A program made the translations under genes and the position numbers. A stretch of 64,000 nt of DNA from Convolutriloba macropyga (Eukaryota). Positions 3,001-22,115 of the stretch are shown here, piece by piece. A model generated the notes under the pieces. It had not been told where the DNA came from. It saw only the letters and a program-made list of their open reading frames with translations, and did not search any database. Position 1 is the first letter of the stretch. The number at the start of each line of letters is the position of its first letter. The stretch covers positions 13,640,001 to 13,704,000 of the forward strand of contig NC_134469.1 in assembly GCF_964194025.1 (NCBI RefSeq), given 5' to 3'.

Positions 3001-3883
3001 TAATTTTTCTTATTTTCATGTTCGCTGATAGTTTTTGCCCTCTAAATTTATCCAACATTTAAAGAAACCAATTCTCTCAATCTAGACCTCTCTTTCTTTT
3101 TTCTATCATAAACACAAACCACAAATATAACACACTCGAACACACATGCATACACCAACACAAGCACAAATACAAACAAAGAAATAAAACAATTTAAGAT
3201 TTTTTGGGCATCTTTACTCAAGGTTAATTACCGTTAGTCTAAATTCTAATTGTTTTTTATTCACAAAATAATTGTGGAATTTTGGAGGCAATTGTATTTG
3301 TAGTGGTGAAATTCACACTAAAAACTAAAATGATCCTTTTGAAAAGCTTTTTTCCTCAAAGAACTTCAAAAAGAACTTTTCACAAGGCTTTTGATGTTTG
3401 ATGAGCCTAATGGAATTTATACCTATCATTTAAAGGAACGAGCTCACTCACACTAACTCTTTTTCTTTGTCTCTCTTGCAGACATACCTTACATTTCAAA
3501 ATGCGCACACATGCGTACATCCACAAGCGTGCGCGCGCCCACAAACAAAAACCTTGCAACCGAAAACATTTTCAAGATTTTCCTTTTTGGCATATAATCT
3601 TTATTCAGGGCATGTTACAGTTAAAATAGGCCTTCTAGGTTTTTCAAAGAATTGAAAAAAATTAGTTAACAGTTAAGTTTATGTTTTGGACCTTTCAACA
3701 TTTGAATTAAGTGTAGTTTTAGAGAAAAAGGAAACTTTTTCTTCTGAAATGAATTGAAAATAAAATTCCTTTCTTTCTCCCTTCTTCGTTCTTTCATGAG
3801 TAGTTTAAAACTAAAAACATAGCTGGCAAATTGCCAGAAACTAGCCGCAATAGCTTCATAGATCTGACCATCAAAAAGAAGGT

Positions 3884-4468
3884 AGTAGTAATAGGGTGGA
3901 CGACAGTCCCGGGGGGGGGGGGGGGTGAAGACCCCCATGTATTAAGATTGGTTATAGCGGTTTTTGACCGCTAAGGGTCTTCCCTAATGTATTAAGATTA
4001 GGGATAGAAGCTAGGGGCGCCTAAATGTATTAAGATAGGGTATAGGGTGCATATATTAAGATTAGGAATAGAATCTCCATGTATTAAGATTAGGTATAGC
4101 CGCCATGTATTAAGATTGGGTATAGCCGCCATGTATTAAGATTAGTCATAGCGGCCAACATGTATTAAGATTAGTTATAGCAGCCGACATGTATTAAGAT
4201 TAGTTATAGCGGTCGACACGTTTTAAGATTATTTATATCCGCTGACATATATTAAGATTAGGGGTATTTTTTGAAAAATTGTTGAGGTTTTTGTACATTT
4301 TTACGCCGTTTTTTCAATAATTTCTAAATACTCTCTTCTGATTGGTTAAAAATGACAGCTTTTTTAAAGAAAATTGAATTGAAAAAGTTATAAATAACAG
4401 ACACAGTATAAATTATGCACATCAAACTACAAAATCACTCTAACATTTACATTCAACAGGTATAAATT
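3884..4468 (+). repeat. Left TIR of the Maverick (~585 bp)
   Basis: Reverse complement of 21167-21748; about 9 substitutions plus a few small or homopolymer indels by manual comparison. Confidence 0.96.
3936..4265 (+). repeat. Tandem array of ~11 copies of ATGTATTAAGATT(A/G)GNTATAG inside the TIR (mirrored at ~21373-21702)
   Basis: Directly visible; unit spacing mostly 26-29 bp, longer for the outermost copies. Confidence 0.95.
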
Positions 4469-4629
4469 GTTATCAAAATAAGTGAAAACCGAGGTACATT
4501 TAGCCGAGTGGGTTTATAAATCCGACAAAAAGGAAAAACTTGTGTAGCTAACTGAGTAAAAGGTACAATTGTTAAAAACTAATGTCGACTTTATTGGGCA
4601 CCAGCTTAGTGTATACCCAGTAATCAAAT

Positions 4630-5028
4630 TTACATATAATTACTAAAAAAATTTAGTGCATGCACATCATGAACATTGTTCAAGTTTGTTTGTAAAAAAT
4701 TAAATAGATGAAAAGCAGCATAAATAGTGTAGAACCCACACAAGTTGTCCATTTTCTGGAGTGGTCTGTGTATCATTTTCTGATACTTTTAATTCAAAAA
4801 TTTGTAATGTGTGACTGATCGTGCTAGAGAATCCGCATAGTAATAGTTCCTATTGAGGCGACCAATCATTATCCAATGTTAACCAACCTCACTGCTTGGG
4901 GAAGTGTTGATGATTGCAAAAGTAAAATAGGGTAAATTTGGGACAAAATCTGCTGGAAAGGATCCAATATACCGGAATTTTAGCTCTAGATTACGTTCAA
5001 TAATGTCACGAAGTGAGGTGTTATCCAT
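4630..5028 (-). pseudogene. Adenain-like cysteine (maturation) protease with two premature stops; not in ORF track
   Basis: Manual translation: MDNTSLRDIIERNLELKFRYIGSFPADFVPNLPYFTFAIINTSPSSEVG*HWIMIGRLNRNYYYADSLARSVTHYKFLN*KYQKMIHRPLQKMDNLCGFYTIYAAFHLF...NYM*. Has the IxNT..G-HW, DS and Q..CG catalytic motifs. Confidence 0.92.
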
Positions 5029-5093
5029 GACAAATAAGTTTTCTTTTCTTTATCTCACAAGCTCCGTTTGTACAAGGATTCCTGACAGAGCAA

Positions 5094-5297
5094 TCAAGTT
5101 GAAAACTTTCGTTCTGTTGAGAGAAGCAACAATCTTTGGATTTTGTCAACCGTTTCGTCCTGGGTGCTGGGATGAAACAAAACAATAATTATAAAAAGTC
5201 CAAGGAAAATTAGCAAAGGAATATAAATATATATATTTGAAGTTAGTCTACTCCAGTTCACATCCATTAGTGAATTAACAATTGATGTAGAGAACAA
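5094..5297 (-). CDS. Small predicted membrane protein of the Maverick (probably frameshifted)
   Basis: Hydrophobic stretch IYIYIPLLIFLGLFIIIVLF; co-oriented between the capsid and protease genes. Confidence 0.4.
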   Translation of the reverse strand: MFSTSIVNSLMDVNWSRLTSNIYIYIPLLIFLGLFIIIVLFHPSTQDETVDKIQRLLLLSTERKFST

Positions 5298-5367
5298 CAG
5301 CTAGATAGAGAGGTTAAGACTACAAATGTTCCAACAAAGTACATAAAACCGAAAAAATGAAAAATTA

Positions 5368-6695
5368 TTAGACATTTTTAGCAACAGTCCCAAACTGATC
5401 AATTTTAACAGTGGACATCCTTTCTCCCAGAACAATGATTTCTGTCACGTTTCTTAGCGAACGATCAAAAAACATTTCCAATCGAAAACTTTCACCGCTG
5501 AGTTCAGGATAATGAATATTTTCGCCAGCATCTTGAAGTGAAGTGAGATCGAATACTAGTATGTAGTGGTTCTGAAACTGATGATGTGGTAACGCAGGAA
5601 TTTCCTCGTTAAAATTCATTGCTTTTATTGTTGTTACGTATGCTCTTCAGTCATTAGTTGTATCAAGTGATACTATAGCTCTACCTCCGCGAACAATTCG
5701 AAGTTCTCGCAAACCAAATTTCTGATAATGGAAAGGATCTTCTTGAAAATGTCCCGTGAATGCCGAATTGGTGTTAATCGCAATAGCTACTCTTCTGATT
5801 GGAGCATTGTTAAAAACATTTTCCTGAATAAACTGGTTCTGTCCTGAGGGAATAATAAATGTACGTGCAATGGTTTCCATAAAGTTGTAACAAGCAGGTT
5901 GATGAGTTAATTGGTATTTGATAGTCTGGTGATACACTTCGTTAACAACCACGCGTCGTGTAAATAAGGAACAGTCAAGAACCTTAAGGGAAACGTGAGG
6001 ATTGTAGGAAATCATGTAATAATTAGGTCTTGCACAAATCAATTTCAATCTTACTTTTGTATTTGGAAGCAGTAATTTTTCACATTGGAACAAGTCAATA
6101 GCTAATTTACCGTAGTAAGTGCTTCCATTTTTCAGCAGAAGTTCTTCCTCTCTGTCTATAAACGGGCTCTTCTCATAATCACTAGGTTGTTTTTCAAATT
6201 CGTATCCATGACAAGCCAAAATACCATCATTATTTCTCGTTGAAGCATTAAATTCATTGGAAATTAAAGCCTTGTGTCCATAGAGACCATTTGAGTTGTA
6301 CACTTGTTGATTGTTCAGATACACTTCACAGTTGGAGAAGAGTGAGTGTAAAATATTGTTGACGTGAGTTAGATAATGTAAATTGTCATCTGTGAAAGAC
6401 ATACCCATATCTGGTTTTCCATGCTCATCTTTTTTCATGAAGTCATCAAACAATCTTCCCTTTTGTAGTCCAACTTTGATTTGAAGGTGAATATCTCTCA
6501 TATCAAGATAGATGCTTCTATCTGTTTCAAATTCAAATTCAATGCTGCTTTCATCCAGTGAAGTACTAGGATAAACTTCTTGAACAGGAGAAGACTCAAT
6601 TGGTTCCAAAACAGGAATTTTGTCAAAAATCTCCAAGCACGAGTTTGTAAAGTGTCCATATCGAAAATTGGAACGTTTGATGATCTAGAATTCAT
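5368..6695 (-). pseudogene. Major capsid protein (double jelly-roll, PY/hexon-like)
   Basis: ORFs 6498-6695 (N-terminus, frameshift ~6635), 5647-6636 and 5368-5619 (same frame, one nonsense codon at 5647) join to ~440 aa. Motifs YP..SIEF, YLD, NNILHSLFSNCEVYLN, NPF-like DPFHYQ and FDLT are typical of Maverick major capsid proteins. Confidence 0.9.
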
Positions 6696-7047
6696 TTTAG
6701 ATTAGCAAATATATCTTTTCTTGTTCGACGACGTCGACTGATTTTTGGAGGTGATTTACGAAAAATGCGATGCTTTCTTGTTTTTCCTGCACCTAGCTGT
6801 TTACGTAAAGTTTTCTTTCCAACATCAGCAGCAACAGATTTGAGTTTTTTCTTCCCAGTCAAAACATTTCCAATTTCAGGAGCAGCCATTTCAATTAAAT
6901 CAGCTCCCACTCTTTTTGCTGCTGGGACAACATATCGTCTCAAAAACGGAATTGCTGTCCTCCCAATTGTTTGCGCTAAAGCTCCAAATCCCCTTCCCCT
7001 TTGTCTGGCATATCCGCGAAAATAGGTAAATCATTATCAGCAACCAT
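6692..7047 (-). pseudogene. Small basic core / membrane-active protein (QRGxG-type, adenovirus pVI/pVII/pX-like)
   Basis: Reconstructed MVADNDLP[fs]YFRGYARQRGRGFGALAQTIGRTAIPFLRRYVVPAAKRVG...KQLGAG...RRRRTRKDIF. QxGxG sites, amphipathic helix, Arg-rich tail; lies between the minor and major capsid genes. Confidence 0.75.
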
Positions 7048-7064
7048 TTCTTACAGTCTTAATT

Positions 7065-7876
7065 CTAAAAACGATTTTCAGAAGTTTTTCTAAACATTAG
7101 TACTGCTCTAGTTACTCCAACAGAGTTGAAAGGTACTTTTTCACCATAAGAGTCTCGGACCTCAAATGTTATGCTGTGGAATGAATTTTTCAGAATCTTT
7201 TTAAATTGTAGGTTGCGAAAATTTTGATAATTCATGTATTGCCCAGTTGAGATGATGTCTCCATTCTTGACCTTTGATATAAAAGGAATACATCGTAAAA
7301 GAGCAGCTTTTGTATCACCAACAATGTTGTATTCAACAATATCACTATATATCATCAAGGTATGTATTCGTACAATGTCATAAGGGAACTTGGGAAAATG
7401 TGGACCAGCACCGCTCATGAAAGCCCCCATCCCATAAACAGCATCTTCACATCCAAAGACATGACAAAGATCACTAAATATAACAAGTAAAGAATTCTCA
7501 TTGGGAAGACTCAAAGAAATTCGCTGTGTAATTTTGTTAACGTGTAATCTGATTGGTGTTTTTTCATACTTTTCTCGTTCCTGAACTTTTTTTGTTCATT
7601 TCGTTTACAATATCAGAGATCAAAGGATATAGACCTGGATCAAGTGTGTAATAGACTGATGGTTTTGTATTCGGTGTTGCTTCGTCTAGATAGAAAAAAT
7701 TCCCTTCCGTGATGTTTTGGTACAAGGAAGGATAAGATAGTTCTGTAATTGCAACCTCCCATTCTCCTTCGAGATTTATTTGTTCCGGAAGAAAGTTTGT
7801 AAAAGAACTTAATGTATTATTTGGGTAACAATCAAAGGAAGCATTCGAAACCAACTCTACAGTAAAAGAATTATCT
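7065..7876 (-). pseudogene. Minor capsid protein (penton-like, PX)
   Basis: N-terminal FTVELVSNASFDCYPNNTLSSFTNFLPEQINLEGEWEVAITELSYP and C-terminal IYSDIVEYNIVGDTKAALLR are characteristic. Frameshift near the T-run at ~7590. Confidence 0.9.
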
Positions 7877-8800
7877 CTAAATGATACACTTTGCAAGCTC
7901 TTGTTCATAAAATTTGCCTAAAATTTCATCACCTTGTTCTCCGTGAAGGTTATGGGTTGGTGGTTTTAAAGTCGCAATTTAAACAATTTGAAAAAATTCA
8001 CATGTGAATTGAGACTTGTAACCTTTTCTAAATGGGATATCGTACTTGGAGATTCGAACTTTGTCCCCAATTTTGAAGCGTGGTTTTTTGTACTCAAAAA
8101 TAGGGTTTTTGTAAAAAAAAAAAATTGACAAAATTCTGAATTTTTAACGTTTTTGGGGGATTTTACCTATAGATCTGTTAACTCTTGTGTTCATATTGTT
8201 AACAAAACTATCCATTTTGTGAACGTATTTATCACCGTTTTCCTCCATGTAGCGATAAATGATGTTTTTTAAAGATCTAATTGCTCTTTCTGCTATAGCA
8301 GCTTTTGTTTCAGTTCTTGTAGAGTAGATTTTGATGTCTTTACTCTTGCAAAATTAATTTTTCGAATTCTCCCCCGAACTCAGTACCTTGGTCAACCCAA
8401 ACTCTATCAGGTTTAGTGTTCTTCCTCAACATTTTTTTAAAGGCAGCTACAGCATCAGAGGCATATTTTGACTTCATTGATTGAACACGGACCAGGCGAG
8501 AAAAGACAACACATATCAATAAGTACTTCACACCGTTATTAAATTCAGACAATTTATCCATAAAAGCCAAATCAAGACACCAAATCTCATTGATACGTTT
8601 TGCAAAAGCAGGCAATCTTTTGAAATGTCGAATCGCTTGTCGAAATTTAGTGTAAGAATTCTTTCTGTATAAAAAATCAGTAACCTTCTTCTTTGACAAC
8701 CCGCTAGTTTTCTGAAGGTTTTGAACTGAACCATATGCGGCTTTTCCTTCCCTGTACAACCTCTGTAGCTTAGCTTTTTCAGATTTGGAAAGATTCCAGC
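7877..8800 (-). pseudogene. Retroviral-like (rve, DDE) c-integrase, no C-terminal chromodomain
   Basis: WCLDLAFM, VWVDQGTEF and, after a frameshift at ~8355, KAAIAERAIRSLK...RFKIGDKVRISK...FRKGY...GKFYEQELAKCII* (manual translation). Confidence 0.93.
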
Positions 8801-9180
8801 TTCCTCGTCCTTTGCTTATGGCATCTTTGTTTATAATTTTATGTGGATTTAAGCCAATTGCGTCAAGAATTGTGTAATAAATATCGGGACATTCGGCGTT
8901 TTTCCTCTTTAAAGTGTATACGAAATCGACAAATGCCACGTTTGTATCTCTTCCGTCTAACAAAATGGAGTCAGATAGGGATAGCTTAATGCGAGGTGAA
9001 TTTAAAATTTCATTGAAAAGTGATTCGTTGCTGGAAAACTTCTTTTTAGCGTTAACTTTTCTATAAACAGTTTCCAAATTTTTTGGAACCGAATCCGGTT
9101 TTTCGTTATATTTGTCCAATCTTTGAGGTGATAACCTGATTTTCTGATCATAAAGTTGTTGAGGAATCAAAACAAAATGA
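8780..9180 (-). CDS. Uncharacterised Maverick protein upstream of the integrase
   Basis: N-terminal ~125 aa of ORF 8340-9170 (…SPRIKLSLSDSILLDGRDT…); probably a separate gene fused to the integrase by a 1-bp deletion. Confidence 0.5.
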
Positions 9181-9480
9181 TCCTGAGTGACGATTGATGA
9201 TTGACGGAGTTAAAATTGATATAAGACTGATCCCTTTTTTGGAACTCAGGACCTCTCTTCTTTTACTGAGACTTGTTCTTTTTAAAATAAGATGAATTTC
9301 TTCTCTGAACTTTAAAACTTCTTGTTTTTGAATTTCTCTCAGCACTCCTCTCAGAAGGTTTACTATTCACTCGTTTAGAAACTGGATGAAGTCTTTGGGA
9401 CAATTTTTGAGAAAAATTATTTTGAAGCTCTGGGAATATTTCTGGAACGCGATCAGAGTAGAGAGATGTTGTGTGCTCAT
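9148..9480 (-). pseudogene. Conserved small Maverick protein (ECxxNLLxG type) overlapping the ATPase 3' end
   Basis: Manual translation MSTQHLSTLIAFQKYSQSFKIIFLKNCPKDFIQFLNE*IVNLLRGVLRE...SLSKRREVLSSKKG; TGA at the expected Cys. Confidence 0.65.
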
Positions 9481-10135
9481 CGTTCAAAAATGTAATCTGT
9501 TGCCTGCTTTGAGGTAGAAAAAATAAAGATGGCGTTGAACCACTGTTAGTACAGTATCTCAGAGTCGACTGTTTTTGGAGTCAAGTCAATAAGTAAATGA
9601 TCATAGGGAACTGAAGTTGCTGTGGTATACCCGTCTTTTAGTTGAGATCCCAATCCCATTTGTTGACTGAGCGGGTTTATTTGTAAGACGTCTCTGGGTG
9701 ATTTGAATAAAACAAAATGGGTGTTCTGCAGTTCAATATCCCTTCCTAGTTGGCTTTGATGAAAGAGATTGTGCTTTTTGTACACTGTACTTAAACCTTT
9801 ATGTCTACCAGCAGTAGCTATTTTCACAAATTCTTTCGAACTAGAAATTTCTTCACAAGAGTCATCAAAAATAAGTAAATACTTTGTTCCATTATTAGGT
9901 AAATTTTGTATCAACTCAAAATCAACACCTTGAACGAACTCAATGTTTTTTTTATATTTTTTGACATTAGTCCGTAAAGAGATTGATAGTGTTGATAAAA
10001 ATAGTAAATTTTGTCAAATTCTGGTTGAAAAGTTCCAAAAACTAACCAATCATGGATGAGATGGGATTTCCCAGATCCACTTGGTCCAACCAATGAAAAA
10101 AAAACTCGTTCTTTTGTGGAAATTATTTTGTTCAT
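9263..10135 (-). pseudogene. A32/FtsK-like genome packaging ATPase
   Basis: Walker A GPSGSGKS, Walker B LLIFDD, AGRH and LFKSPRD motifs; split across three ORFs by two frameshifts. Confidence 0.95.
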
Positions 10136-10395
10136 AATTTTGGGGAAGGTAAAATATATCCAACTGTACTCGACAAAAAGGCGATCCAAACTGTTGTCTC
10201 CTCACAAGTCTCAGCTAATGTAATTTTTACGATACAACAAGCTAAAATCAATAGTATGACAAAAAACTGGGACAAAAAAACTACTAAAGACCGGTTACAC
10301 GTCTGTCCAAAGCATTTCCAAGATTGACGTTCTTTATTATTGTCATCAAAGACAAAATTACCTAATTGAAGCCCCTTATCAGTGTGATAAGTCAT
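10132..10395 (-). CDS. Small two-TM membrane protein (87 aa)
   Basis: Intact ORF with two hydrophobic segments, W-x-C and C-terminal GYILPSP; resembles small TM proteins of Polintons and Polinton-like viruses. ATGA overlaps on both sides. Confidence 0.7.
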   Translation of the reverse strand: MTYHTDKGLQLGNFVFDDNNKERQSWKCFGQTCNRSLVVFLSQFFVILLILACCIVKITLAETCEETTVWIAFLSSTVGYILPSPKL

Positions 10396-10637
10396 TTATA
10401 CGCTATCTTCTTCCCTAGGGATAAAGGAACTGAGCAACTGAATTGAAACGTAAACAACAAAAAAATGCCAAAAATAACTGAACTAAACATAACACACAAC
10501 CAAAATATTGTTCCGTCAAAGGAATCAGTGAGAAAAAGCATCAAAATTGAAAAATGTACCAAAGTTAGGAGCAAGACTATGAAAGAATAGTACAGTATGG
10601 GAACACAGTATTTTTTGATATTTGTTGATCAACTCAT
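10392..10637 (-). CDS. Small hydrophobic protein
   Basis: Two hydrophobic segments; its stop overlaps the next ATG. Start uncertain. Confidence 0.45.
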
Positions 10638-10706
10638 TCTCTTATACTAATTTCAGAGGAAAAAAATACAAATAAAACTGATAAATTACAATCACAAACA
10701 CAAACA

Positions 10707-11173
10707 TTAAACATTATCAAAAAAATTTAAAGTCCATATCCCATAAACGTAAGCCTTTTTTTCTGCGCATTGAAGAGTCTTCTTGTGTTGATAGGGGTAG
10801 CTGCTGCAATTCCAATCAGCATCATCAATTTCTAACAGTTTGCAAGCCTTGGGACAACCAAGATCATCAAGATTTTCCACATCTTTACACAAGTAGGGTG
10901 ATAAAATTTTGCATTTTTCAAGTCCTTTAGCAAAGTACTCTGTTGTTGGTGAGCAATGATGATGTATAATAAAAGCCAGCTCAGAATAATCGAGCTTTCC
11001 AGGGTTCCAATTTATACCGTGCATTTTTTTGTATTCCATTTTGCTTGAAAATTCGGCTTGTAGTCTTTAGGTGGGAGAAAACTGTATCCAAGTACAATTC
11101 CGTCCTTAAAGATTCCCAACTCTTTGACAACTTTTCCTTCTAAGCATTCAATATCTAGTACAACGAGAGGCAT
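10707..11173 (-). pseudogene. DEDD-like 3'-5' exonuclease-fold protein with Cys/His tail
   Basis: Reconstructed MPLVVLDIECLEGKVVKELGIF...[fs ~11030]HGINWNPG...AKGLEK...NLDDLGCP...C..H...CA. Confidence 0.65.
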
Positions 11174-11213
11174 TCTTTCTTCTGGGATGATTTTTCAAAA
11201 AATGATCAACAGT

Positions 11214-11609
11214 CTAGCATTTTGTAAATACGTGGATGACAAATTTTATAAAGACACAAAAGAACAGACCAGTAATGTGACCCAAGAGACAAGAGCTCGG
11301 AAATTGAGGTAACATGTAACAAAAACCCGGTCCTTGGTTTGTAGTTGCTTTAACCGCTCCAGCAGAATCGTGTAAAATTGCATGTAAACGAAACACTTTC
11401 GATCTTGCGAGGAAAAAGTCCAGAATTGAATTACCGTAACCAAGTCCTCCGTGGGGGAAGTTTTGGTCAATTTCCTCCAAATTAATGTTTTGATCCCAAA
11501 TTTTACATGCAGCCAGGAAACAGTTTTTTCGTTTTTCGTTGTTGGGAAACATTGGAAGAATACTACTGTAACAATTAAAAATGTTTAGAAGTGTGACAAT
11601 ATCCATCAA
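11214..11609 (-). CDS. HD-motif protein, possibly a divergent phospholipase A2-like protein
   Basis: Intact ORF; GLGYGN...HAILHD spacing resembles the parvoviral PLA2 YLGPGN...HD pattern; hydrophobic C-terminus. Confidence 0.45.
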   Translation of the reverse strand: MMDIVTLLNIFNCYSSILPMFPNNEKRKNCFLAACKIWDQNINLEEIDQNFPHGGLGYGNSILDFFLARSKVFRLHAILHDSAGAVKATTNQGPGFCYMLPQFPSSCLLGHITGLFFCVFIKFVIHVFTKC

Positions 11610-11618
11610 TTTTTTTCT

Positions 11619-12014
11619 TTATTTATCTAAAGTGATACTAGTCTTTTTGAAAGTCTCTACATAAGAAAGAAGTTCAGGAAGATGTTCCAATAATTCTTTG
11701 TATTCCTCCTTTTTTAGTTCAATCTTTGTCAAAAAACTCCATTGAACTCCGTTCCAACGATGTTGTGAAATGGAAATTTCGTGTTTATCAGATAGATATA
11801 TTAAAGTAGTGCGTCGTAATCCGTTATAAATAACCCACTTTAGTTCTGAATAATTGGACTTACTGTCAAGTTTATCAATTTTGGGAAAATTTAGAGCTTC
11901 AAGAACTGTATAAGAAGACTTTTTTAGTTCGTAGTGAAATCTAACGTGGAAAACTTTTGATTTATTTCTTAGACTCAAAATAAGATTTCTGGAGGAACCA
12001 ATATTCCAACTCAT
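11619..12014 (-). CDS. Hypothetical protein, possible PC4-like ssDNA-binding fold
   Basis: Intact 131-aa ORF with ATG; beta-strand pattern ending IELKKEEYKELL. Confidence 0.5.
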   Translation of the reverse strand: MSWNIGSSRNLILSLRNKSKVFHVRFHYELKKSSYTVLEALNFPKIDKLDSKSNYSELKWVIYNGLRRTTLIYLSDKHEISISQHRWNGVQWSFLTKIELKKEEYKELLEHLPELLSYVETFKKTSITLDK

Positions 12015-12072
12015 TTTCAGTTTGAAAAAAACAAAAATGATTCAAATAATATGAATTAAAAAGACAAATACA

Positions 12073-12588
12073 TTATAAAATTACAAACTGAAATGTACAT
12101 TGTTGAATATTAGAAAAGTCCTTCAGATTTTGTATCAACTCCTTAAATTCATCCAGAGTGTAGCTGACATAAGTCACTTGTTTGAACTCGTTGTTCTCCT
12201 TTCTACAAAAAAGTCGAATTTGTACATAAGTTGAAGCTGGCTGGTCCTTGATGTATTGGAGGAAAGTAACATAGAGTCTGCGGTTTCGTCCAATGCTAAT
12301 CTCTCTCACCTTGTGACACTGTTCCAGCACGTGTTCCATGCCTATATTTTTGTCGAATTGAGGTTGGTGTTCTCTCATCTCCAGTTCTCCATTGAGAAGA
12401 TCTTCCTTGAGGAAGCAGAATTTCTTAAACTCATAGTCTCCAATTCGCAGTTGCTGGTACATTTCAAAAGTCCCAGAATTGTCTTTTCTAAAGACTTGGA
12501 TGGTTGGTTCAGTATAAATTTGTCCGTTTCTTGAAATCTGGGACATAGTTAATCTCCCAAATCTTTTCGAATTGGATCCAAAGTCCAT
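12073..12588 (-). CDS. Tandem PC4-like domain protein (may extend to ATG 12684 through one nonsense codon)
   Basis: LYVTFLQY...YVQIRLF...VSYTLDEFKEL resembles the PC4 pattern VxVxxF...VDIRxY...ISLxxEQWxxL; a second, weaker copy lies N-terminal. Confidence 0.55.
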   Translation of the reverse strand: MDFGSNSKRFGRLTMSQISRNGQIYTEPTIQVFRKDNSGTFEMYQQLRIGDYEFKKFCFLKEDLLNGELEMREHQPQFDKNIGMEHVLEQCHKVREISIGRNRRLYVTFLQYIKDQPASTYVQIRLFCRKENNEFKQVTYVSYTLDEFKELIQNLKDFSNIQQCTFQFVIL

Positions 12589-13131
12589 ATAAAAAGGAAC
12601 CGAATCAGTCCCTGGTTTTGGTTAGGATTGAGTGTACATTGAAGGAGCACTCGAAAGAAAAGGTGATACTTTAGAGAGAGACATTTCAACAGCTTGAGCT
12701 GAGAGTGAAATAGAAAATAAATGATTTGTATTTGTACGCAATTCCCCTCAATAACTTAAAATTTCCTTTTTTATGGTAAGTAATGACGTCATGTATACCC
12801 ATAAAAGGTATGCTAAATGACGTTATTTCCTTATAGGGTAATCTATTCGGAAATCTTGAGGTTCGTAAATTTTTTAACCAGAATTTCAAACGGATCCTGG
12901 TGTTTAGCTCGTCTGTGTTGCATTAAAGAAAAATAGTGCTTGAAATATTATGAACAAGTATAACAAAGAATTCTTTTAGTCTTCTGTTTCTTGAACTGCA
13001 ACTGCATCATTATGAAAATGATTTTTTAGCTTTTTATGAAAACAGAAATTGCAAGCTCTAAAAATAGAAAATTACGTTACCGTACTTTTTGTTTCCATAT
13101 ATAGGTTCTATTCTGTTATCCCGATATAGAA

Positions 13132-13737
13132 ATGGCAGCAATAATGTGTCAGGTTTTACCTCAATTTTACAGAGATTATAATGACAAGACATTATTCCTT
13201 TCTGTATCTGTTAAGGAGTATAAACCTTATCTACTCATTAAAAAATACTCCGTTGCTACTCATAATGACAATTTTTGTCCCTTAAAGACTTGTCGCTACC
13301 ACATTATTCTCATTTCATTCTCAGTGAAGGAGATACTAGAGATAATAGAAAATTTGTCTTATGTTTATCAAACAGTTGATTGCTTGTACACACTCTATAA
13401 ACACCAGTTCTTTGGTTCCATTATAGAAGAGTCAGGACTGGTCTTTGCTCAGTTAACCAGAGCGGTGGAGCACAACTTGAAGAAGTACGTGGAAAAAGTG
13501 ATCAGTATCTCCAAAAAACGATTGAGCAGAAAGAAGTTCAAGCGTCACCTACTACGCGCTGAGCAAAGAAATGCGAGCACTCAAACCCTTGGATCCTCTT
13601 TTCTAGATAGGGTGCATTCCCTTAGAAATTCAAAGTATGAGAGTGAACTTATAAAGATTGTTGATTGTTTGTTAGATGGACATGGCATAATTGATAATCT
13701 TGTTTTGTATCTTGAAATTAGAAAACAAAGTATATAA
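13132..13737 (+). CDS. Hypothetical Maverick protein (201 aa)
   Basis: Intact ATG ORF in a good context, divergent from the structural block; basic NLS-like KKRLSRKKFKR. Confidence 0.65.
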   Translation: MAAIMCQVLPQFYRDYNDKTLFLSVSVKEYKPYLLIKKYSVATHNDNFCPLKTCRYHIILISFSVKEILEIIENLSYVYQTVDCLYTLYKHQFFGSIIEESGLVFAQLTRAVEHNLKKYVEKVISISKKRLSRKKFKRHLLRAEQRNASTQTLGSSFLDRVHSLRNSKYESELIKIVDCLLDGHGIIDNLVLYLEIRKQSI

Positions 13738-14354
13738 TTTCTTGTTTGTGTTTTGTATCTGTGTTTATAATTTGAAAGAACGTATTGATAAAAATCAATT
13801 TTAAAAAAAACCGAAAATTCAAACAACTTTTTTGTTAAAAATCGAAAAAATTTTTAATATTTTCTCTTATATATCGAAAATTTTTTCAACACTTTTTCTT
13901 AAATATCGAGATTTGGATTTGAAAAATTTTCTTAAATGTCGAAAAATTGTTCAAAAACTGTTATTTAAAAACGCAGAAAAATATTCATTTTTCTTCATTT
14001 TACGATATGATTTTGCGCAAAAAAAGAAATTTTCTTTAAATTTTAAAATGACAACTGTCAAACTTGTTTTGTTTCAATAAATATCAAATCTCAAAACAAA
14101 AAATTTTATTAAAAATCGAAAAACTATTTCAGTTCTTTTCCTAAAAATCAATTTTTAAACGACTTTTTTTTGTTAAGAAACAGAATTTCTATCAAAGTTA
14201 AAATAAAATTTTGACAAAAATTGCTGTGTTTTTGTTTCAACATAGCTTGCATAGTGTTTGGAGTAAAGAGAAAGTTCAACTTAAAAGAAATGAATTCAAA
14301 CAAAAGTATAAATACATCACAAAGAATTCAACTATAAAATTTACAATATCAAAT

Positions 14355-15092
14355 TTATTCAAAAAGAGTTCTCACAACGTGATCTGGCAAGTATTGAATT
14401 TCATTGCCAAATGGACGGACTCTTTCAACAATTGCTGGAGGCTCTGTAGGTCGAACACTGATGGGAGTTACGAGAGCCTCATCTGTCAGCACAATGGGGT
14501 TGTGAGCTGTTCCGTCCTCTATGGAGGGGGTTGTCATTGACGGTGTAGTCGACATATCAGTCGAACCATAATACTGAGCTGGATCGAAGTTTTCCAGATC
14601 GTTAAATGACCACGTGGTGCTAGTATCGACACTCAATTCGCTTTGTTGACTGCTGCCAGCATTGCTCACTATCTGGAGAAGGCTGCTTTGCTGCTCTGGA
14701 CTGGATACTTGACTTGTCTCGGGTGTATGGAACCAGTTGTTGGGAATCTGTCCTTCCTCCCACGGAAATGTGTACTGAATGCTTCCAGCAACGTAGTTGT
14801 CGGGAAAATCTGTTCCGTTAACGTGAGGGCAGTGATGCCCACTGATCACAGCAACTTCGTGGCCCATTGGAACAGCGTGAGTTCCAAGCTGATTCTCCGT
14901 GATTGGAACCTGCCCCTGATGATATGTGTCAAACTGTTGTCGCTGGTGCTCAATAATGTGCCACACTGTGATAGGTAGGGTTACAACGGACTCGTAGAGC
15001 CCATTCGACAAGTCTCTGATGCTGATCCGACCGGTCTCCTCTAAGAAAGAAACTGAGTAGAGAAGGCTGTTGTTCTGCACTGTAAATTCCAT
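14355..15092 (-). CDS. Hypothetical Maverick protein (245 aa): compact N-terminal domain plus acidic S/T/P/Q-rich tail
   Basis: Intact ATG ORF with higher GC than its flanks. Confidence 0.7.
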   Translation of the reverse strand: MEFTVQNNSLLYSVSFLEETGRISIRDLSNGLYESVVTLPITVWHIIEHQRQQFDTYHQGQVPITENQLGTHAVPMGHEVAVISGHHCPHVNGTDFPDNYVAGSIQYTFPWEEGQIPNNWFHTPETSQVSSPEQQSSLLQIVSNAGSSQQSELSVDTSTTWSFNDLENFDPAQYYGSTDMSTTPSMTTPSIEDGTAHNPIVLTDEALVTPISVRPTEPPAIVERVRPFGNEIQYLPDHVVRTLFE

Positions 15093-15402
15093 TTCTCAAT
15101 GTGGTGAGACTAGAGTCAAAGGTAGTTGAGACAGAGGTGATGTTGTTTTTAAAGAGAAAGCAAGTGATGCTGGGTAAATTTTTCAGCTCTATTTATACTA
15201 AACTCCAACCATGGAGAACAAAGTTTCCAAAAAGGGTAATGTTTAGCAGAAAAAGTGACGTTATTTTCCAGAAAAGGAAATGTCTCAATTGTAAAGTGAC
15301 CAAAGAAGGAATCAACTCAGAAAATCTAACATTACTATTCGAAACAAGTAAGCTCAAAACTGAATAGACCAAAAAAGGTAACTTTTACACGTGTTACCCT
15401 AG

Positions 15403-15994
15403 TTAACAGCCAAAGATGGATAAGTTAGAGGAAATGAGTTGACAAAAAAAAGTCAAGCTTTGATAAATTCTCGCCATCTCGTTGAATCTCAAATCGATAT
15501 CGGAAGATGTTCCAAATTTGGAACTAAATTTTTGTACATAAATTTTGGGGAGTCGTATTCCAAATCGTACTCTTACCCCCTCTGCATTGTAGTCCTTGTA
15601 ATAATGAAAGAAGAGCGCACTGTGTAGAGATGAAGTAATTGTTACCGATTCAGGAATTGGGATATAATTAGATTGAGACAAATTTCTGTACTGTTCCATT
15701 ATCTCTGGGACAGAATTCAATATGAAAAGCATTTCATACTTGTTGATGTGTAGTTCTGACGATAAATCAAATGATTGTTTTATGTAGTCATCATACGAAT
15801 TTTTTTATAGAAAAGGTTGCATATTGAAATCCTTTACTAAATCGGATGATTCTGTTGTTTTGAGTAAAAACGTCCAAGAAATTGTAAAAGAAATAAGAGT
15901 CAACATCAATTTCGTCTACTCTGTAAGCATCAGCGATTCCTTCCTTTCTTTTGTAAATTTTTTCCAAAAGTTTTAAGTGATTTTTGATCAACAT
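15403..15994 (-). pseudogene. Hypothetical Maverick protein, frameshifted (possible PC4-like repeats)
   Basis: ORFs 15791-15994 and 15403-15732 join via YDDYIKQSFDLSSELHINKYE after one frameshift. Confidence 0.45.
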
Positions 15995-16745
15995 TTTTCA
16001 CAAATGAATACGGTATCAAGTAAAACCCTGTTAATATAAGAGAAAAATAAAATAGAAAAAGCAACGCATAAAATGAAATCGTTTATCTTGAGAATTAGAT
16101 TTCTAAAGCTGAAGTCTGATTGGGCGGGAGGTTCTATTACAACAACATTAAGTTGTACAACGTAAACTTGTTCTTCAATAATAGAAGGAAACTTTTTCTT
16201 GATCTCTCTCTTGTTGTGTTGAAAGCACATTTATGCGCTAGTTTCTATTTTCAATAAAACTAAATTTGATCTCAGACAGTAAAATTTATCAATATTTGAG
16301 ATACACAATTTTGGACTACATCTATTCAAAATACTGTGAATCGTGAATTTTTAAAGAATAGTTTTCTATTTGTAATTTTTTTGGTGAAATTTTCTGTATG
16401 GGAAAACTTAAATAAAGTTTAACAAATAAGAGTGAGAGGAAAATGAGAAAAAAATGTAAAGTTGGAATTTTTCGCCACGGAATGAACTTGTACATTTAAA
16501 CTGAAAGTTAGTTAATTATATGCAGAACTGTCGCAATTGGAATCATATCAATCTTCTAGAATGTTCTGGCATGACGCCTGAATCTAAAAATAGAAACAAC
16601 GTCATTTTAATACATGGAAGTGATGAGTAATCATCGAGTACCGCAAAGTTACATAGCAGCTTTAAATCATTATACTTTCTGTTTTTTCAGATTCAGTTGC
16701 TCCGCAATTTACTGAATTTTTCATAAATTCATCTTGAACTTAACA

Positions 16746-19700
16746 ATGCCTGCTCTCGATAGAAATCTCCCAGTGAAATGCACAAAGTGTGAAAAAATGG
16801 TTGCTAAACTAAACATGGCCAGGCACAAAAAATCTTGTGATAGTGGGACTTTATCATGTCCCAAATGTCCTAACTTTTTTACAAAGAAGAAGGAAGACTT
16901 GAACTATCACCTTGCCAAGCATCATGCCTCGAAAGATGTTCAGCTTAGTACTGTGTGTACTGTGTGCTTGGAAGAGTTCCCAAGCTTTTATTCTCTTCAA
17001 CAACACAAGAGGAGAAAGCATGGAACTTCGACAAAAATTGGGACCAAATCGAGTGAAAAGCTCAAAGAAGTCCTAGAATCAGAGGAGCTAGACCAGAACA
17101 ACGAGCAATTACAGCAGGCACTTAGTGCTTGTCAGCACTTTTTCACGATACGGAAATGGAGAATGGGAGACATCGAGTGTTTAACTTCAAGTTGTCCAAG
17201 CTCGATCCCAATGAGATCAACGAGAAAAAAAAAGAAGTTTTTGAAAAATTAAATTGTGCTGCCAAAGTAAATCTGGCTCTTGGATTTATTTTGCGCAATG
17301 TGGACATAGACGAGTATCGGTACTTTTATGCGCATGAGAACAACACTTTCTTTGAAAAATATCATTTGCTCTGCTCAAAAGGTGACTTGGTCTCTCTTCA
17401 AGACAGAGTAGAGAAAATGGATCTAGTGGAGACGTGTGCACAGGAGAGGGAAAATACAAAGTGGCAATTTGCTTTGACTACTAACGTAACAATATTCAGC
17501 GCTCTCCTAAAAAACATTCCAATGGGATGTATCGATGCTGTTCTTCTTGAACAGTATCTTAGACGACCAGATGTGAATTGTCTTGTATCGAATGGTTACG
17601 GCGAACCTTACAAAGATTATCTTTGCCTGTTCAGAGCTATAGCTGTCCACTTGTACGGATCATCTGAGTTGGAAACGAATGCTGCAAATTTGTTTAGTGC
17701 TTTTCTTCATGAATCTGGTGGACATGATGCAATCAATTTTAGAGGAGTATCAATCGATCACCTCGTGTTTGTTGAAAATGCGATAAAGCATAACATCTTT
17801 ATTTATGATATTGATATAGAGGAAGGAGAATTTGTCGGAGAACTTGCGAGAAGAAGTGTTGAAATGTACGAAAAGAACATTAATTTACTGCGATACAACG
17901 ACCATATATGCTACGTGGATGATATTAACACATTCTTTAAACGATTCCGTTGTCCCAGTTGCGATACATTTATAAAGCATGCAGGTCAATTCAACCCTCA
18001 TTTAAAATCCTGCAAAGACAGAGTACAGCATATTTACCCAAAGAGTGTGTATACTCTGCGAGAAACTTTGTTTGATAAACTCGATGCATTCGGAATTTCC
18101 TACAACGATGATCAAAAATTGTTCAAAAACTTGGCTATTTTTGACTTTGAATCTATCTGCGTTCCCACTGAAGAGCTAAAAGATACAAATACAACTACTT
18201 GGATTGGAAAACATGAGCCAATATCTGTCTCCATTTCCTCCAACTTGATTGAAGAACCTGTGTTTCTATGCGACAAAGACCCTAAGAACCTGATTGTTTC
18301 TTTTGTCGAAACTCTTGAGGAGTTAGCTAACAAGAGTAAAACCGAAATGCAAGCAAAATTTGCATCAATTCAGGAGATAATCAATAGCCGAGTTAAAGCC
18401 ATCTTTGAAAAATTGAAAGAAAGGAAAGGTCACACAACTCCTGCATTTGATTTTGAAGATGTGTATTGAAGAAGAGGAGGAAGCTGATATGTCTACTCAG
18501 TTCCTACAAATGCAGAAAAATCAACTTTTGGGCTTGCAACAACACTTTGAGCGTTATATCAACACATTTCCTGTATTTGGATTCAACAGTGGAAAGTATG
18601 ATTTGAATCTCATCAAATCCTATCTTCTACCTTATCTCATTCATGAACGGGATATTCAACCTACAGTTATCAAAAAGGCAAATCATTTTGTTTCCTTCAA
18701 GTTCGGTGACGTGCAGTTCCTTGACATTCTAAATTTCCTTGGAGGAGCTACATCTCGATTCATTCCTCAAAGCTTACAAGACCAGCGAGACTAAAGGTTT
18801 CTTCCCAAATGAATGGTTCGATTCTCCAAATAAACTTGACGCACCTTTTCTACTTTTCTACCCCCTATGAATGTTTCTTCAGTAAGCTGAAGGATCACAA
18901 CCCTTTGGAGAAGGAATTCACTAATTTTACTAAGTTGCTGAACAGTGGACTATCTCAACAAGAAGCTCTGAAAAAATTGAGACTGAAAGAACTTCCCCAT
19001 CTGGAGTCGATAACTACAATTACTTGAAAGTGATTTGGGAGGAAGAGCAAACGTCTACATATAGAGATTTTGTCAAGTGGTACAACAACAAGGATGTTGT
19101 TCCAACACTAGAAGCAATGAAAAAAATGATGGATTTTTATAACAACAAAGGAATTGACATGTTAAAACTCGGATGTACACTTACCAATTTGGCAAACATT
19201 TGTCTTCACAAGTCAACAAACCACAAATTTTTCCCATTTGTTGAAAGTGACAAGGATTTACATGATAAAATACGCGAAGACATGACTGGTGGACCTTCTA
19301 TTGTGTTCACAAGAAAGGCAGTAGTTGACCAAACCTACATCAGGAACTCAGAAAATATATGTAAATCTATCGTGGGTATTGATGCTAGTCAACTCTATCC
19401 CTTTTCAATGTGTCAAGAAATGCCAACAGGACTTTACACACGATGGCAGCTTGACACAAATTCTCAAAAATTCAAAGCTCGAAACAATAAATCTCGAACA
19501 TTTGAGAACATGGTCATGTCTTATCTCCAATCACAACGCCCAGAATGCACAATTGAAAGCTACTATACAACCGGGAAACAGGAAAAGATTGACTGTTTTA
19601 CCGTGGACGGTTTTTGTGCTCATTGCGACACAGTATTCGAAGCTATGGGTTGTTATTTCCACTTTTGCCCATTCCAAGAATCTCGAGCAAGCCTCTCGGA

Positions 19701-21082
19701 GGAGGAAATGCAGAGAGAAATTAGAAAAAGAGAACATGATGAACTGAGAAGAGATTATTTGAGAAACAAGGGATACAATATTGTTGAAGTCTGGGAGTGT
19801 AAATGGTTGGAACGTGTTGAAGAGGAAAGTGTCAGAAATCACGTGAGGAAGAAATTTCCCTTCAAACTACCTATGACGCAAGAGTCTCTTTTAGCGAAAA
19901 TAAGAGATGGGAAAATGTTTAGATATGTACAGTGCGATCTCGAAGTTCTCTAATTTCCCTCCTATTTTTAAGAAATTTAATATCAGTCGAGCCGATATTG
20001 GAGAATATATGAGAGAGTATGCAATTGAAAACAACCTACTCAAACATCCTCAACGAATGTTGATTTCGAGCTTCAAGTTGGAAAATGGGTCAATCATTTT
20101 TCCTTTACTCAACTTTTATCTCAGTCTTGGTCTGAAATGTACAAAGATTTATAGATTTCTACAATACACACCCAAAAAATGCTTCAACAATTTTGTTCAG
20201 TCAGTGGTAGATGCTAGAAGAGCGGGTGATGAAAATCCTGATTCTAGCGTTGTGGCTGAGACAATGAAATTGTTGGGTAACAGCTCTTATGGGTATCAAA
20301 TTATGGACAGAAGTAGACACACAGAGACCAAGTACCTGAATGATGAGAAGAAGCACAAAGCAATCAATGGGAAAATGTTTAAGCGTCTGAACAATGTGTC
20401 AAAAGAAATTTACGAAGTTGAGCTTGCAAAATCAAAAACTGAGCATCGAGAACCTATAATAGTTGGATTCTTCATACTTCAGTACGCTAAATTACGTATG
20501 TTGGAGCTCTACTATAGCTTCTGTGACAGATTTTGCGATGTGGATAAATTCGAAGTGTTAGAGATGGATACAGATTCTCTTTATTTAGCGCTAGCGCACG
20601 AGAACATTTATGATTGTATTCGACCTGCTAAAAAGGAAGAATGGGAGACTTTGCGAGAAAAGGACTGCGATGATTCCTTCAGAGCAGATGCCTCACACAA
20701 CTTTTTCCCTAGAACATGTTGTTCTAAGTATAAGAAGCATGATAAACGGGAACCAGGTCTTTTCAAGGAAGAATTCAGATGCACCGAAATGATTTGTCTC
20801 TGTAGTAAAACCTATTGTTGCTACGATGCTAGGTCAGACAAGTACAAAATCAGTAGCAAAGGCCTGAACAAAAGAACTCTGGAGGAGACTGGAGATGGAC
20901 CAATGGAAAAATATCGACGAGTGATGGATGAAATTATCAACCTTACTTCGACAAATAGAGGTTTCAGAACAATAAATCATTGTGTTGCTACATATGAACA
21001 GACAAAGAAAGGGCTATCCTATTTCTATCCCAAGCGAGTAGATCTAGATGACGTTATCCATACCGAACCCCTCAAATTGTAG
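16746..21082 (+). pseudogene. polB: Protein-primed family B DNA polymerase with N-terminal C2H2 zinc fingers and inserted Vsr-like endonuclease; ~5 frameshifts
   Basis: Exo I DFES, Exo II GFNSGKYD, Exo III YNNKDV, GGPSIVF, Pol A DASQLYP, Pol B KLLGNSSYG and Pol C EMDTDS across six consecutive ORFs. Confidence 0.97.
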
Positions 21083-21166
21083 AGCTTTTATAATAACTTT
21101 TATTCTTCTCTAATATGTGATATTTTTATTATTTTGTCTTTGTGAATTTTTATAATTATGCTTTAA

Positions 21167-21748
21167 AATTTATACCTATTTAATGTAAATGTTCGAGTGA
21201 TTTTGTAGTTTGATGTGCATAATTTATACTGTGTCTGTTATTTATAAATTTTTCAATTCAATTTTCTTTTAAAAAAAAGCTGTCATTTTTAACCAATCAG
21301 AAGAGAGTATTTAGAAATTATTGAAAAAACGGCGTAAAAATGTACAAAAACCTCAACAATTTTTCAAAAAATACCCCTAATCTTAATATATGTCAGCGGA
21401 TATAAATAATCTTAAAACATGTCGACCGCTATAACTAATCTTAATACATGTCGGCTGCTATAACTAATCTTAATACATGTTGGCCGCTATGACTAATCTT
21501 AATACATGGCGGCTATACCCAATCTTAATACATGGCGGCTATACCTAATCTTAATACATGGAGATTCTATTCCTAATCTTAATATATGCACCCTATACCC
21601 TATCTTAATACATTTAGGCGCCCCTAGATTCTATCCCTAATCTTAATACATCAGGGAAGATCCTTAGCCGTCAAAAACCGCTATAACCAATCTTAATACA
21701 TGGGGGTCTTCACCCCCCCCCCCGGGACTCGTCCACCCTATTACTACT
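21167..21748 (-). repeat. Right TIR of the Maverick (~582 bp)
   Basis: Reverse complement of 3884-4468. Confidence 0.96.
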
Positions 21749-22115
21749 GAAGGTAAAAAAGACACAAAGGGCTGAGATGTTAAATTTCGATTAAGAATCT
21801 GTATAACTGATTGCTGTTTCTATTAGACGCTCTTGAAAAACCTTCAAAAAGAGTGACAAGAACTCAATTGCCCTTCTCTCTTTGAATTAAAGCACAGAAA
21901 AGTCCATTTCAGAGTGAGAAGTCATTTTTGAGAGTGAGGTAAGTCACGTGTGACCAAAAATTTAATCACGCAAATGAACAAAAATACTAGCTCCACTAAG
22001 TGCAAAAAATGACGTCACGGGCGCAATTCAGTTGAAATTGAATGAACGAATGAACAAAAAGCAGATTTGAAGTGGTTGTGACGTCATTTGGTCGTAACAA
22101 AAATCTTGATGAAAT

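Follow-up and report, generated by a model that had tools for sequence, protein, structure and literature searches.

A cluster of candidate PC4-like genes in a Maverick element

The window, a stretch of 64,000 nucleotides from Convolutriloba macropyga (assembly GCF_964194025.1, contig NC_134469.1, positions 13,640,001 to 13,704,000), contains a Maverick/Polinton element carrying a cluster of five small genes, here called A to E (Table 1). An earlier note on this DNA had proposed that A, B, C and D encode about six diverged domains of the PC4 fold that could serve as single-strand-binding proteins (SSBs) in replication. Its placement of these genes in a Maverick is borne out, since the element has (AGT)2//(ACT)2 ends, terminal inverted repeats (TIRs) of about 550 bp (451 nt at 99% identity), a 6-bp target site duplication (TSD; GAAGGT, at 3878-3883 and 21749-21754), a family B DNA polymerase gene (pPolB), an rve integrase and an ATPase. 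Ends of the AGTAGT//ACTACT type and a 6-bp TSD are given as Maverick hallmarks in an excerpt of PMC8097293. The matches to rve (E 1.3e-4) and Pox_A32 (E 1.1e-3) both lie below the curated cut-off.

Table 1. Coordinates, in the window, of the element, the gene cluster and the neighbouring modules.
Feature	Position	Strand	Description
Gene A	11619..12014	-	Probable PC4-like protein, basic, pI 9.5
Gene B	12073..12588	-	Tandem type I PC4-like (predicted); repeats at about 12397-12588 and 12106-12327
Gene E	13132..13737	+	Within the cluster; absent from the list of the earlier note
Gene C	14355..15092	-	Repeat of about 60 aa (14913-15092), then acidic Ser/Thr/Pro-rich tail
Gene D	15403..15994	-	N-terminal helical extension, then tandem type I PC4-like domain (predicted)
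Maverick/Polinton	3884..21748 (17,865 bp)	.	AGTAGT//ACTACT ends, GAAGGT duplication, TIRs
Zinc-finger and family B DNA polymerase gene, several frames	16746..21082	+	DASQLYP, KLLGNSSYG, DTDS
Virion and integration module	4882..11606	-	PLA2-like, exonuclease-like, A32-type ATPase, rve integrase, capsid-like; several broken

B and D are supported as paralogues with a predicted tandem type I fold

Fold prediction and structure search, which the earlier note had suggested for every gene, support a PC4-like fold of the two-repeat type I (Pur-alpha/Whirly/MRP) for B and D; for the N-terminus of C the evidence came from dimer prediction instead. For the predicted structures of B and D alike, the top match out of 48,161 chains was Pur-alpha, which led the next row by 3-4 Z units, and the matched part of Pur-alpha, repeats I-II (3k44, 5fgp, 8cht), is itself a type I PC4-like domain. 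Superposition with the Whirly proteins (WHY1/2, PBF-2) and trypanosome MRP1/MRP2 was poorer (rmsd 5.4-6.0). Single B repeats could be superposed on PC4/Sub1 (PF02229, 1pcf) with an rmsd of 3.2, and both matched a PC4 profile above 40/40 shuffles; this profile holds 12 sequences, the non-PC4 rows from L034-L036 having been dropped and locus L041 left out. In B repeat 2 (58 rows), R16 is basic in 97%, R38 is basic in 88% and F40 is aromatic in 88% of the sequences, and these residues align with the IR-x-aromatic strand of PC4. The strands of D and A likewise keep basic and aromatic residues.

The paralogy of B and D is supported by profile comparison (E 9e-7, with 0/20 shuffles as good). In a half-domain all-versus-all comparison with hhalign only the internal repeat of B was significant, and the cross-gene scores of 12-20 bits overlapped those of unrelated controls (up to 17 bits); distant family members were needed. 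Once these were included, the all-versus-all comparison suggested in the earlier note was significant for B and D and marginal for A, and it gave nothing for C. The amplified paralogous module proposed there is supported for B and D, marginal for A and without a sequence link to C (or E). Its count of about six domains resolves into four well supported repeats in B and D, one moderately supported in C and one weakly supported in A, with two further candidates that are unsupported. The arrangement also differs from that envisaged, in that B and D are predicted tandem type I proteins and not homodimers of the PC4 kind, so that four of the six domains make up two functional units.

B and D are nevertheless distinct from the proteins that they resemble. 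Compared with Pur-alpha, they are only 9-12% identical, have no Pfam PurA match and no third repeat, and are encoded by a mobile element. Compared with PC4/Sub1, their repeats are fused in tandem and do not match PF02229: at the curated cut-off of 25 bits this profile had 0 matches in any open reading frame (ORF) of the window or in 76 relatives of B, and in the genome it matched a single gene, which belongs to the host. Searches of Pfam, PHROGs and PDB sequences gave nothing relevant.

The N-terminus of C is predicted to form a dimer that carries an acidic tail

When residues 1-66 of C were folded as two copies, the dimer score was 0.35, compared with 0.02 for the best control and a mark of 0.32 that was reached by 21/30 solved homodimers and 0/23 single chains from microbes and by 17/29 and 0/30, respectively, from eukaryotes. 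Contacts agreed to at least 95% across runs with pLDDT of at least 68 (69), and placed helix residues 43-51 of one copy on strand residues 5, 12, 14, 23 and 25 of the partner. In this model, alternate residues of four strands face the helix of the partner, which is the swapped type II arrangement. Thus, the N-terminus of C is predicted to be a helix-swapped homodimer like PC4/Sub1, YdbC and the phage T5 homologue (4bg7), all of which are type II. By sequence, the first 62 residues showed no link to B, D, A or PC4 in half-domain hhalign, the PC4 profile test or the profile comparisons.

The claim that one putative PC4-like domain is fused to an acidic tail agrees with the composition of the tail of C (residues 63-245), which contains 12.6% D+E, 21% S+T, 10% P and no K. 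The whole protein has a net charge of -23 and a pI of 4.5 and is without lysine in all 245 aa; 0-1 Lys was found in 14/14 full-length ORFs of sister copies. The repeat of C differs from PC4/Sub1 in being acidic, and its low-complexity tail is C-terminal. Since a net charge of -4 argues against this repeat as an SSB, we infer that it is a dimerisation base more than a strand binder. Two further stretches of C carry tentative labels: PIVLTDE is similar to a SUMO-interaction motif, and the terminal helix, LPxxVxxxLF, to the start of an F-box.

A is probably PC4-like, whereas E is unsupported

Several weak sequence leads point to A as a probable PC4-like protein. Among 166 frames it matched the D profile best after D itself (E 4e-4), and its last strand and helix scored 21-22 bits (E 0.011-0.014), compared with a shuffled maximum of 17 bits, in a test in which one control pair also beat 20/20 shuffles, at 16.8 bits. 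A was also placed with PC4/YdbC clusters of the Atlas (0.84-0.85, 154-155 shared features), which we treat as a lead only. The putative C-terminal repeat spans 11640-11852, and a possible second, N-terminal half is without a full helix; an apparent PC4-profile signal of this half vanished once the non-PC4 rows were dropped.

For E, membership is doubtful and unsupported. The N-terminus (13153-13377) shows a strand-helix pattern that is similar by eye, and E aligned to D repeat 1 with 19 bits over 23 columns, but it had no match in the PC4 profile test or in later profile comparisons. E also contains a basic stretch, SKKRLSRKKFKR, followed by RNASTQT, both kept in both subfamilies; we take the latter to resemble the TQT motif bound by dynein light chain LC8.

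A shared motif lies at the strand-to-helix junction

The earlier note had started from short strands closed by the pattern (I/V/L)x(L/Y/I)xxxE(F/Y/M)xx(L/I/F). The minus strand contains each of its five strict examples: IELKKEEYKEL (11691-11723), VSYTLDEFKEL (12136-12168), LRIGDYEFKKF (12418-12450), IDLRFNEMARI (15466-15498) and LHINKYEMLFI (15721-15753). The looser example, VTLPITVWHII, does occur in the 245-aa ORF of gene C but falls outside the pattern. In 20,000 shuffles the five reading frames gave 0.07 matches on average and never more than 2, against the five observed, a significance that is overstated because the pattern was derived from the same sequences; over the six frames of the element there are 7 matches, 2/7 of them outside these genes. 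Stronger support than the shuffle count comes from placement, since all four motifs in the models of B (residues 47-57 and 141-151) and D (83-93 and 168-178) lie at the junction between the last strand and the helix, where ISLNREQWLSL is found in the host's own PC4.

The cluster genes are conserved and under purifying selection

The genome contains at least 150 matches to gene B; of 866 candidates, 150 were scored. The copies that were fetched fall into three subfamilies with about 93%, 73% and 72-73% DNA identity to this cluster, the last of which preserves the gene order. Between subfamilies, dN/dS was 0.12 for A (49 pairs), 0.08 for B (91), 0.10 for C (48), 0.07 for D (14) and 0.05 for E (4), with dS of 1.2-2.9, which is near saturation, saturated pairs dropped and pairs that are non-independent. 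The cluster genes are hence under purifying selection comparable in strength to that on the PLA2-like (0.07) and exonuclease-like (0.05) genes of the element.

Two genes of the earlier list needed revision. D is split into two frames in this copy (15791-15994 and 15403-15804), and its 3' end diverges from that of sister copies, but it is a single ORF of 202-204 aa in 7/7 close sister loci. The ORF of B is present as listed, but its N-terminal extension is broken here, the protein being 199 aa in 20/20 sister loci. A search of 1.84 billion representatives returned 147 relatives of B with identity down to about 22%. Beyond a B-like part with 34-42% identity to B, three predicted run-on proteins extend into A-like sequence, which indicates that the adjacency of B and A reaches distant families. 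Relatives were not found in IMG/VR (queries P0082 and the D alignment) or in JGI metagenomes (query P0082), and families of the P0278 and P0097 type were not found in this genome at E 1e-60 and 1e-40. No RNA record was listed among the holders of these sequences, which has no bearing on expression.

Possible roles in replication and transcription

Polintons replicate by protein priming, and adenoviruses carry their own single-strand-binding protein. In the literature examined, no SSB has been assigned to Polintons, whereas phi29 and adenoviruses have one. According to an excerpt of PMC4974454, protein-primed phi29 covers displaced strands with its own SSB, p5, whose predicted OB-fold is unlike the fold of B and D and which is a single gene. 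PC4-like domains, as described in part of PMC7549692, use curved sheets to bind ssDNA or RNA, and they unwind duplexes in an ATP-independent way. We tentatively favour, at somewhat less than even chances, a reading in which B, D and probably A are single-strand binders for replication and C is a dimeric activator. B and D, probably with A, would bind and melt ssDNA during protein-primed strand-displacement replication, the two curved sheets of B and D coating displaced strands and helping to open the termini without ATP. Their job would equal that of phi29 p5 and adenovirus DBP, C would use its PC4 fold as the dimer base for an acidic, activator-like tail, and the paralogues would have divided these tasks after duplication. 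The replicative part is suggested by the phi29 analogy, the ATP-free unwinding of the fold, the conserved strand residues and the fact that the ORFs of the element yielded no further SSB candidate. The DBP of adenoviruses is likewise a single gene, and its fold differs from the PC4 fold.

Several observations weigh against this reading. A shared fold by itself shows no function, and since one SSB is enough for phi29, replication alone leaves three to five genes unexplained. Besides adjoining the polymerase gene, the cluster reads in the same direction as the virion module. The basicity of the repeats is slight, with net charges of 0 and +3 in B, -2 and +2 in D and -4 in the repeat of C. The structural evidence for D is of medium confidence (five models at 40-66), with a helix in place of the expected first strand of its second repeat and Foldseek E-values above 0.001, and the dimer of C passed the mark narrowly and may owe this to its resemblance to PC4 dimers of known structure. 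The 12-row PC4 profile had no match in A, C, D or E, and cross-gene profile-to-sequence matches stayed within shuffled maxima (111/136 proteins used); high scores of the A N-terminus in that test were read as arising where predicted B proteins run on into A, and were disregarded. Finally, a distant Maverick family of the same genome has, in the 20 kb fetched, a single PC4-like gene beside a TBP gene, which hints at transcription.

In this distant family, polymerase and TBP genes were confirmed in the 20 kb around four copies, stretches that may fall short of the whole element. The PC4-like gene (L052:1273-1887, plus strand; G000:C6, near 28344900) encodes a 205-aa protein in which an acidic tail accompanies a single PC4-like repeat, and was the top match of the B profile among 890 frames in 4/4 copies (hhalign E 1.3e-4). 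A second gene just upstream of TBP (L052:9087-9608, plus strand, 174 aa) shows by eye a PC4 repeat with long insertions, but profile tests did not support it. The fold may be recurrent in Mavericks, with an expansion specific to this lineage.

The pairing of a single repeat and acidic tail with TBP favours a viral transcription kit, in which the PC4-fold proteins would act at open promoter bubbles as private coactivators of host RNA polymerase II and C would be the activator. Both PC4 and Pur-alpha serve as transcription cofactors, the tail of C is acidic and lysine-free, and several paralogues would fit stage-specific regulation. We regard such a kit as a serious rival, though less likely than the replicative reading: this element showed no TBP gene, B, D and A are without an activation-like tail, and the element would be left without a recognised SSB.

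Less probable still is a role in RNA binding, with the proteins handling viral mRNA or blunting host small-RNA silencing, possibly as a B-D heterocomplex. The precedent would be MRP1/MRP2, a diverged type I pair of paralogues with 18% identity (PMC7549692, in excerpt); Pur-alpha and MRP1/2, the best structural matches, bind RNA, as do the MS2/PP7 coat proteins, and the gene adjoining the cluster is one that we presume, from its motif, to be exonuclease-like, but the sequence affinity of B is to the ssDNA binders PC4 and YdbC. That most copies have lost nucleic-acid binding and act as scaffolds or as decoys of host PC4/Pur-alpha would fit the low net charge, the acidic repeats of C and D (repeat 1) and divergence past Pfam recognition, and is improbable given the basic and aromatic strand residues conserved in B, D and A.

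Relation to known Maverick genes

The element shares termini, TSD, polymerase, integrase, ATPase, capsid-like and PLA2-like genes with Mavericks/Polintons (adintoviruses). The PC4 fold and a PC4 homologue in phage T5 are already known, and the fold family spans transcription cofactors, RNA matchmakers and phage coat proteins (PMC7549692, in part); new is a Maverick cluster in which several genes, some of them tandem, are predicted to have the PC4 fold. Searches of the open literature (without Repbase) gave no relevant publication that links Polinton/Maverick to PC4, PC4-like, coactivator p15, Pur-alpha or Whirly. The term PC4 does not appear in the main texts (supplementary gene tables could contain such labels) of PMC8502044, PMC11071296, PMC11161782, PMC8097293, 10.1101/2023.08.22.554363 and 10.64898/2026.06.19.733378, and denotes a cluster label in PMC11662393 and a plasmid name in PMC12513018.

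The genes of the cluster provide named, small candidates for the strand-binding helper of Mavericks. Duplication of a PC4 repeat within one gene and across genes of a 17.9-kb element would be a viral parallel to the build of Pur-alpha and Whirly. Because these genes escape Pfam, similar genes are probably unannotated in other Mavericks; the distant TBP-bearing family of the same genome contains one candidate. A bolder and doubtful proposal is that PC4-fold proteins are unrecognised SSBs and gene-control factors of animal Mavericks generally, and that here one ancestral repeat gave rise to four or five genes with as many as eight repeats, which split replication and transcription work between them. 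On this view the element would hold a PC4-fold acidic transactivator as well as tandem Pur-alpha-like domains that are the first in any eukaryotic virus-like element.

Neighbouring genes and minor features

The polymerase gene, in which we take DASQLYP, KLLGNSSYG and DTDS to be polymerase motifs, is divergent in orientation from the cluster, and the virion and integration module lies downstream of the cluster on the same strand; its PLA2, exonuclease and capsid labels are assumed from motifs and position. Within 10132-11606 lie the PLA2-like gene (11214-11606), a gene for a putative 87-aa two-helix membrane protein (10132-10395) and the exonuclease-like gene, which encodes 155 aa in sister copies and is disrupted in this copy. 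The start of gene D is overlapped by an ORF for an 80-aa hydrophobic protein (15988-16230), which evolves faster than any other gene tested, with a dN/dS of 0.16 and subfamilies about 40% identical. Upstream of B, the site TGACGTCA (12784) occurred in 7/7 close sister loci and in 0/15 loci of other subfamilies, and was set aside. In the TIRs (3915-4468 and 21167-21723), units of 26-29 bp form an array and there is also a homopolymer run of G/C; it is a speculation that purine-rich single strands could be a ligand of the Pur-like domains.

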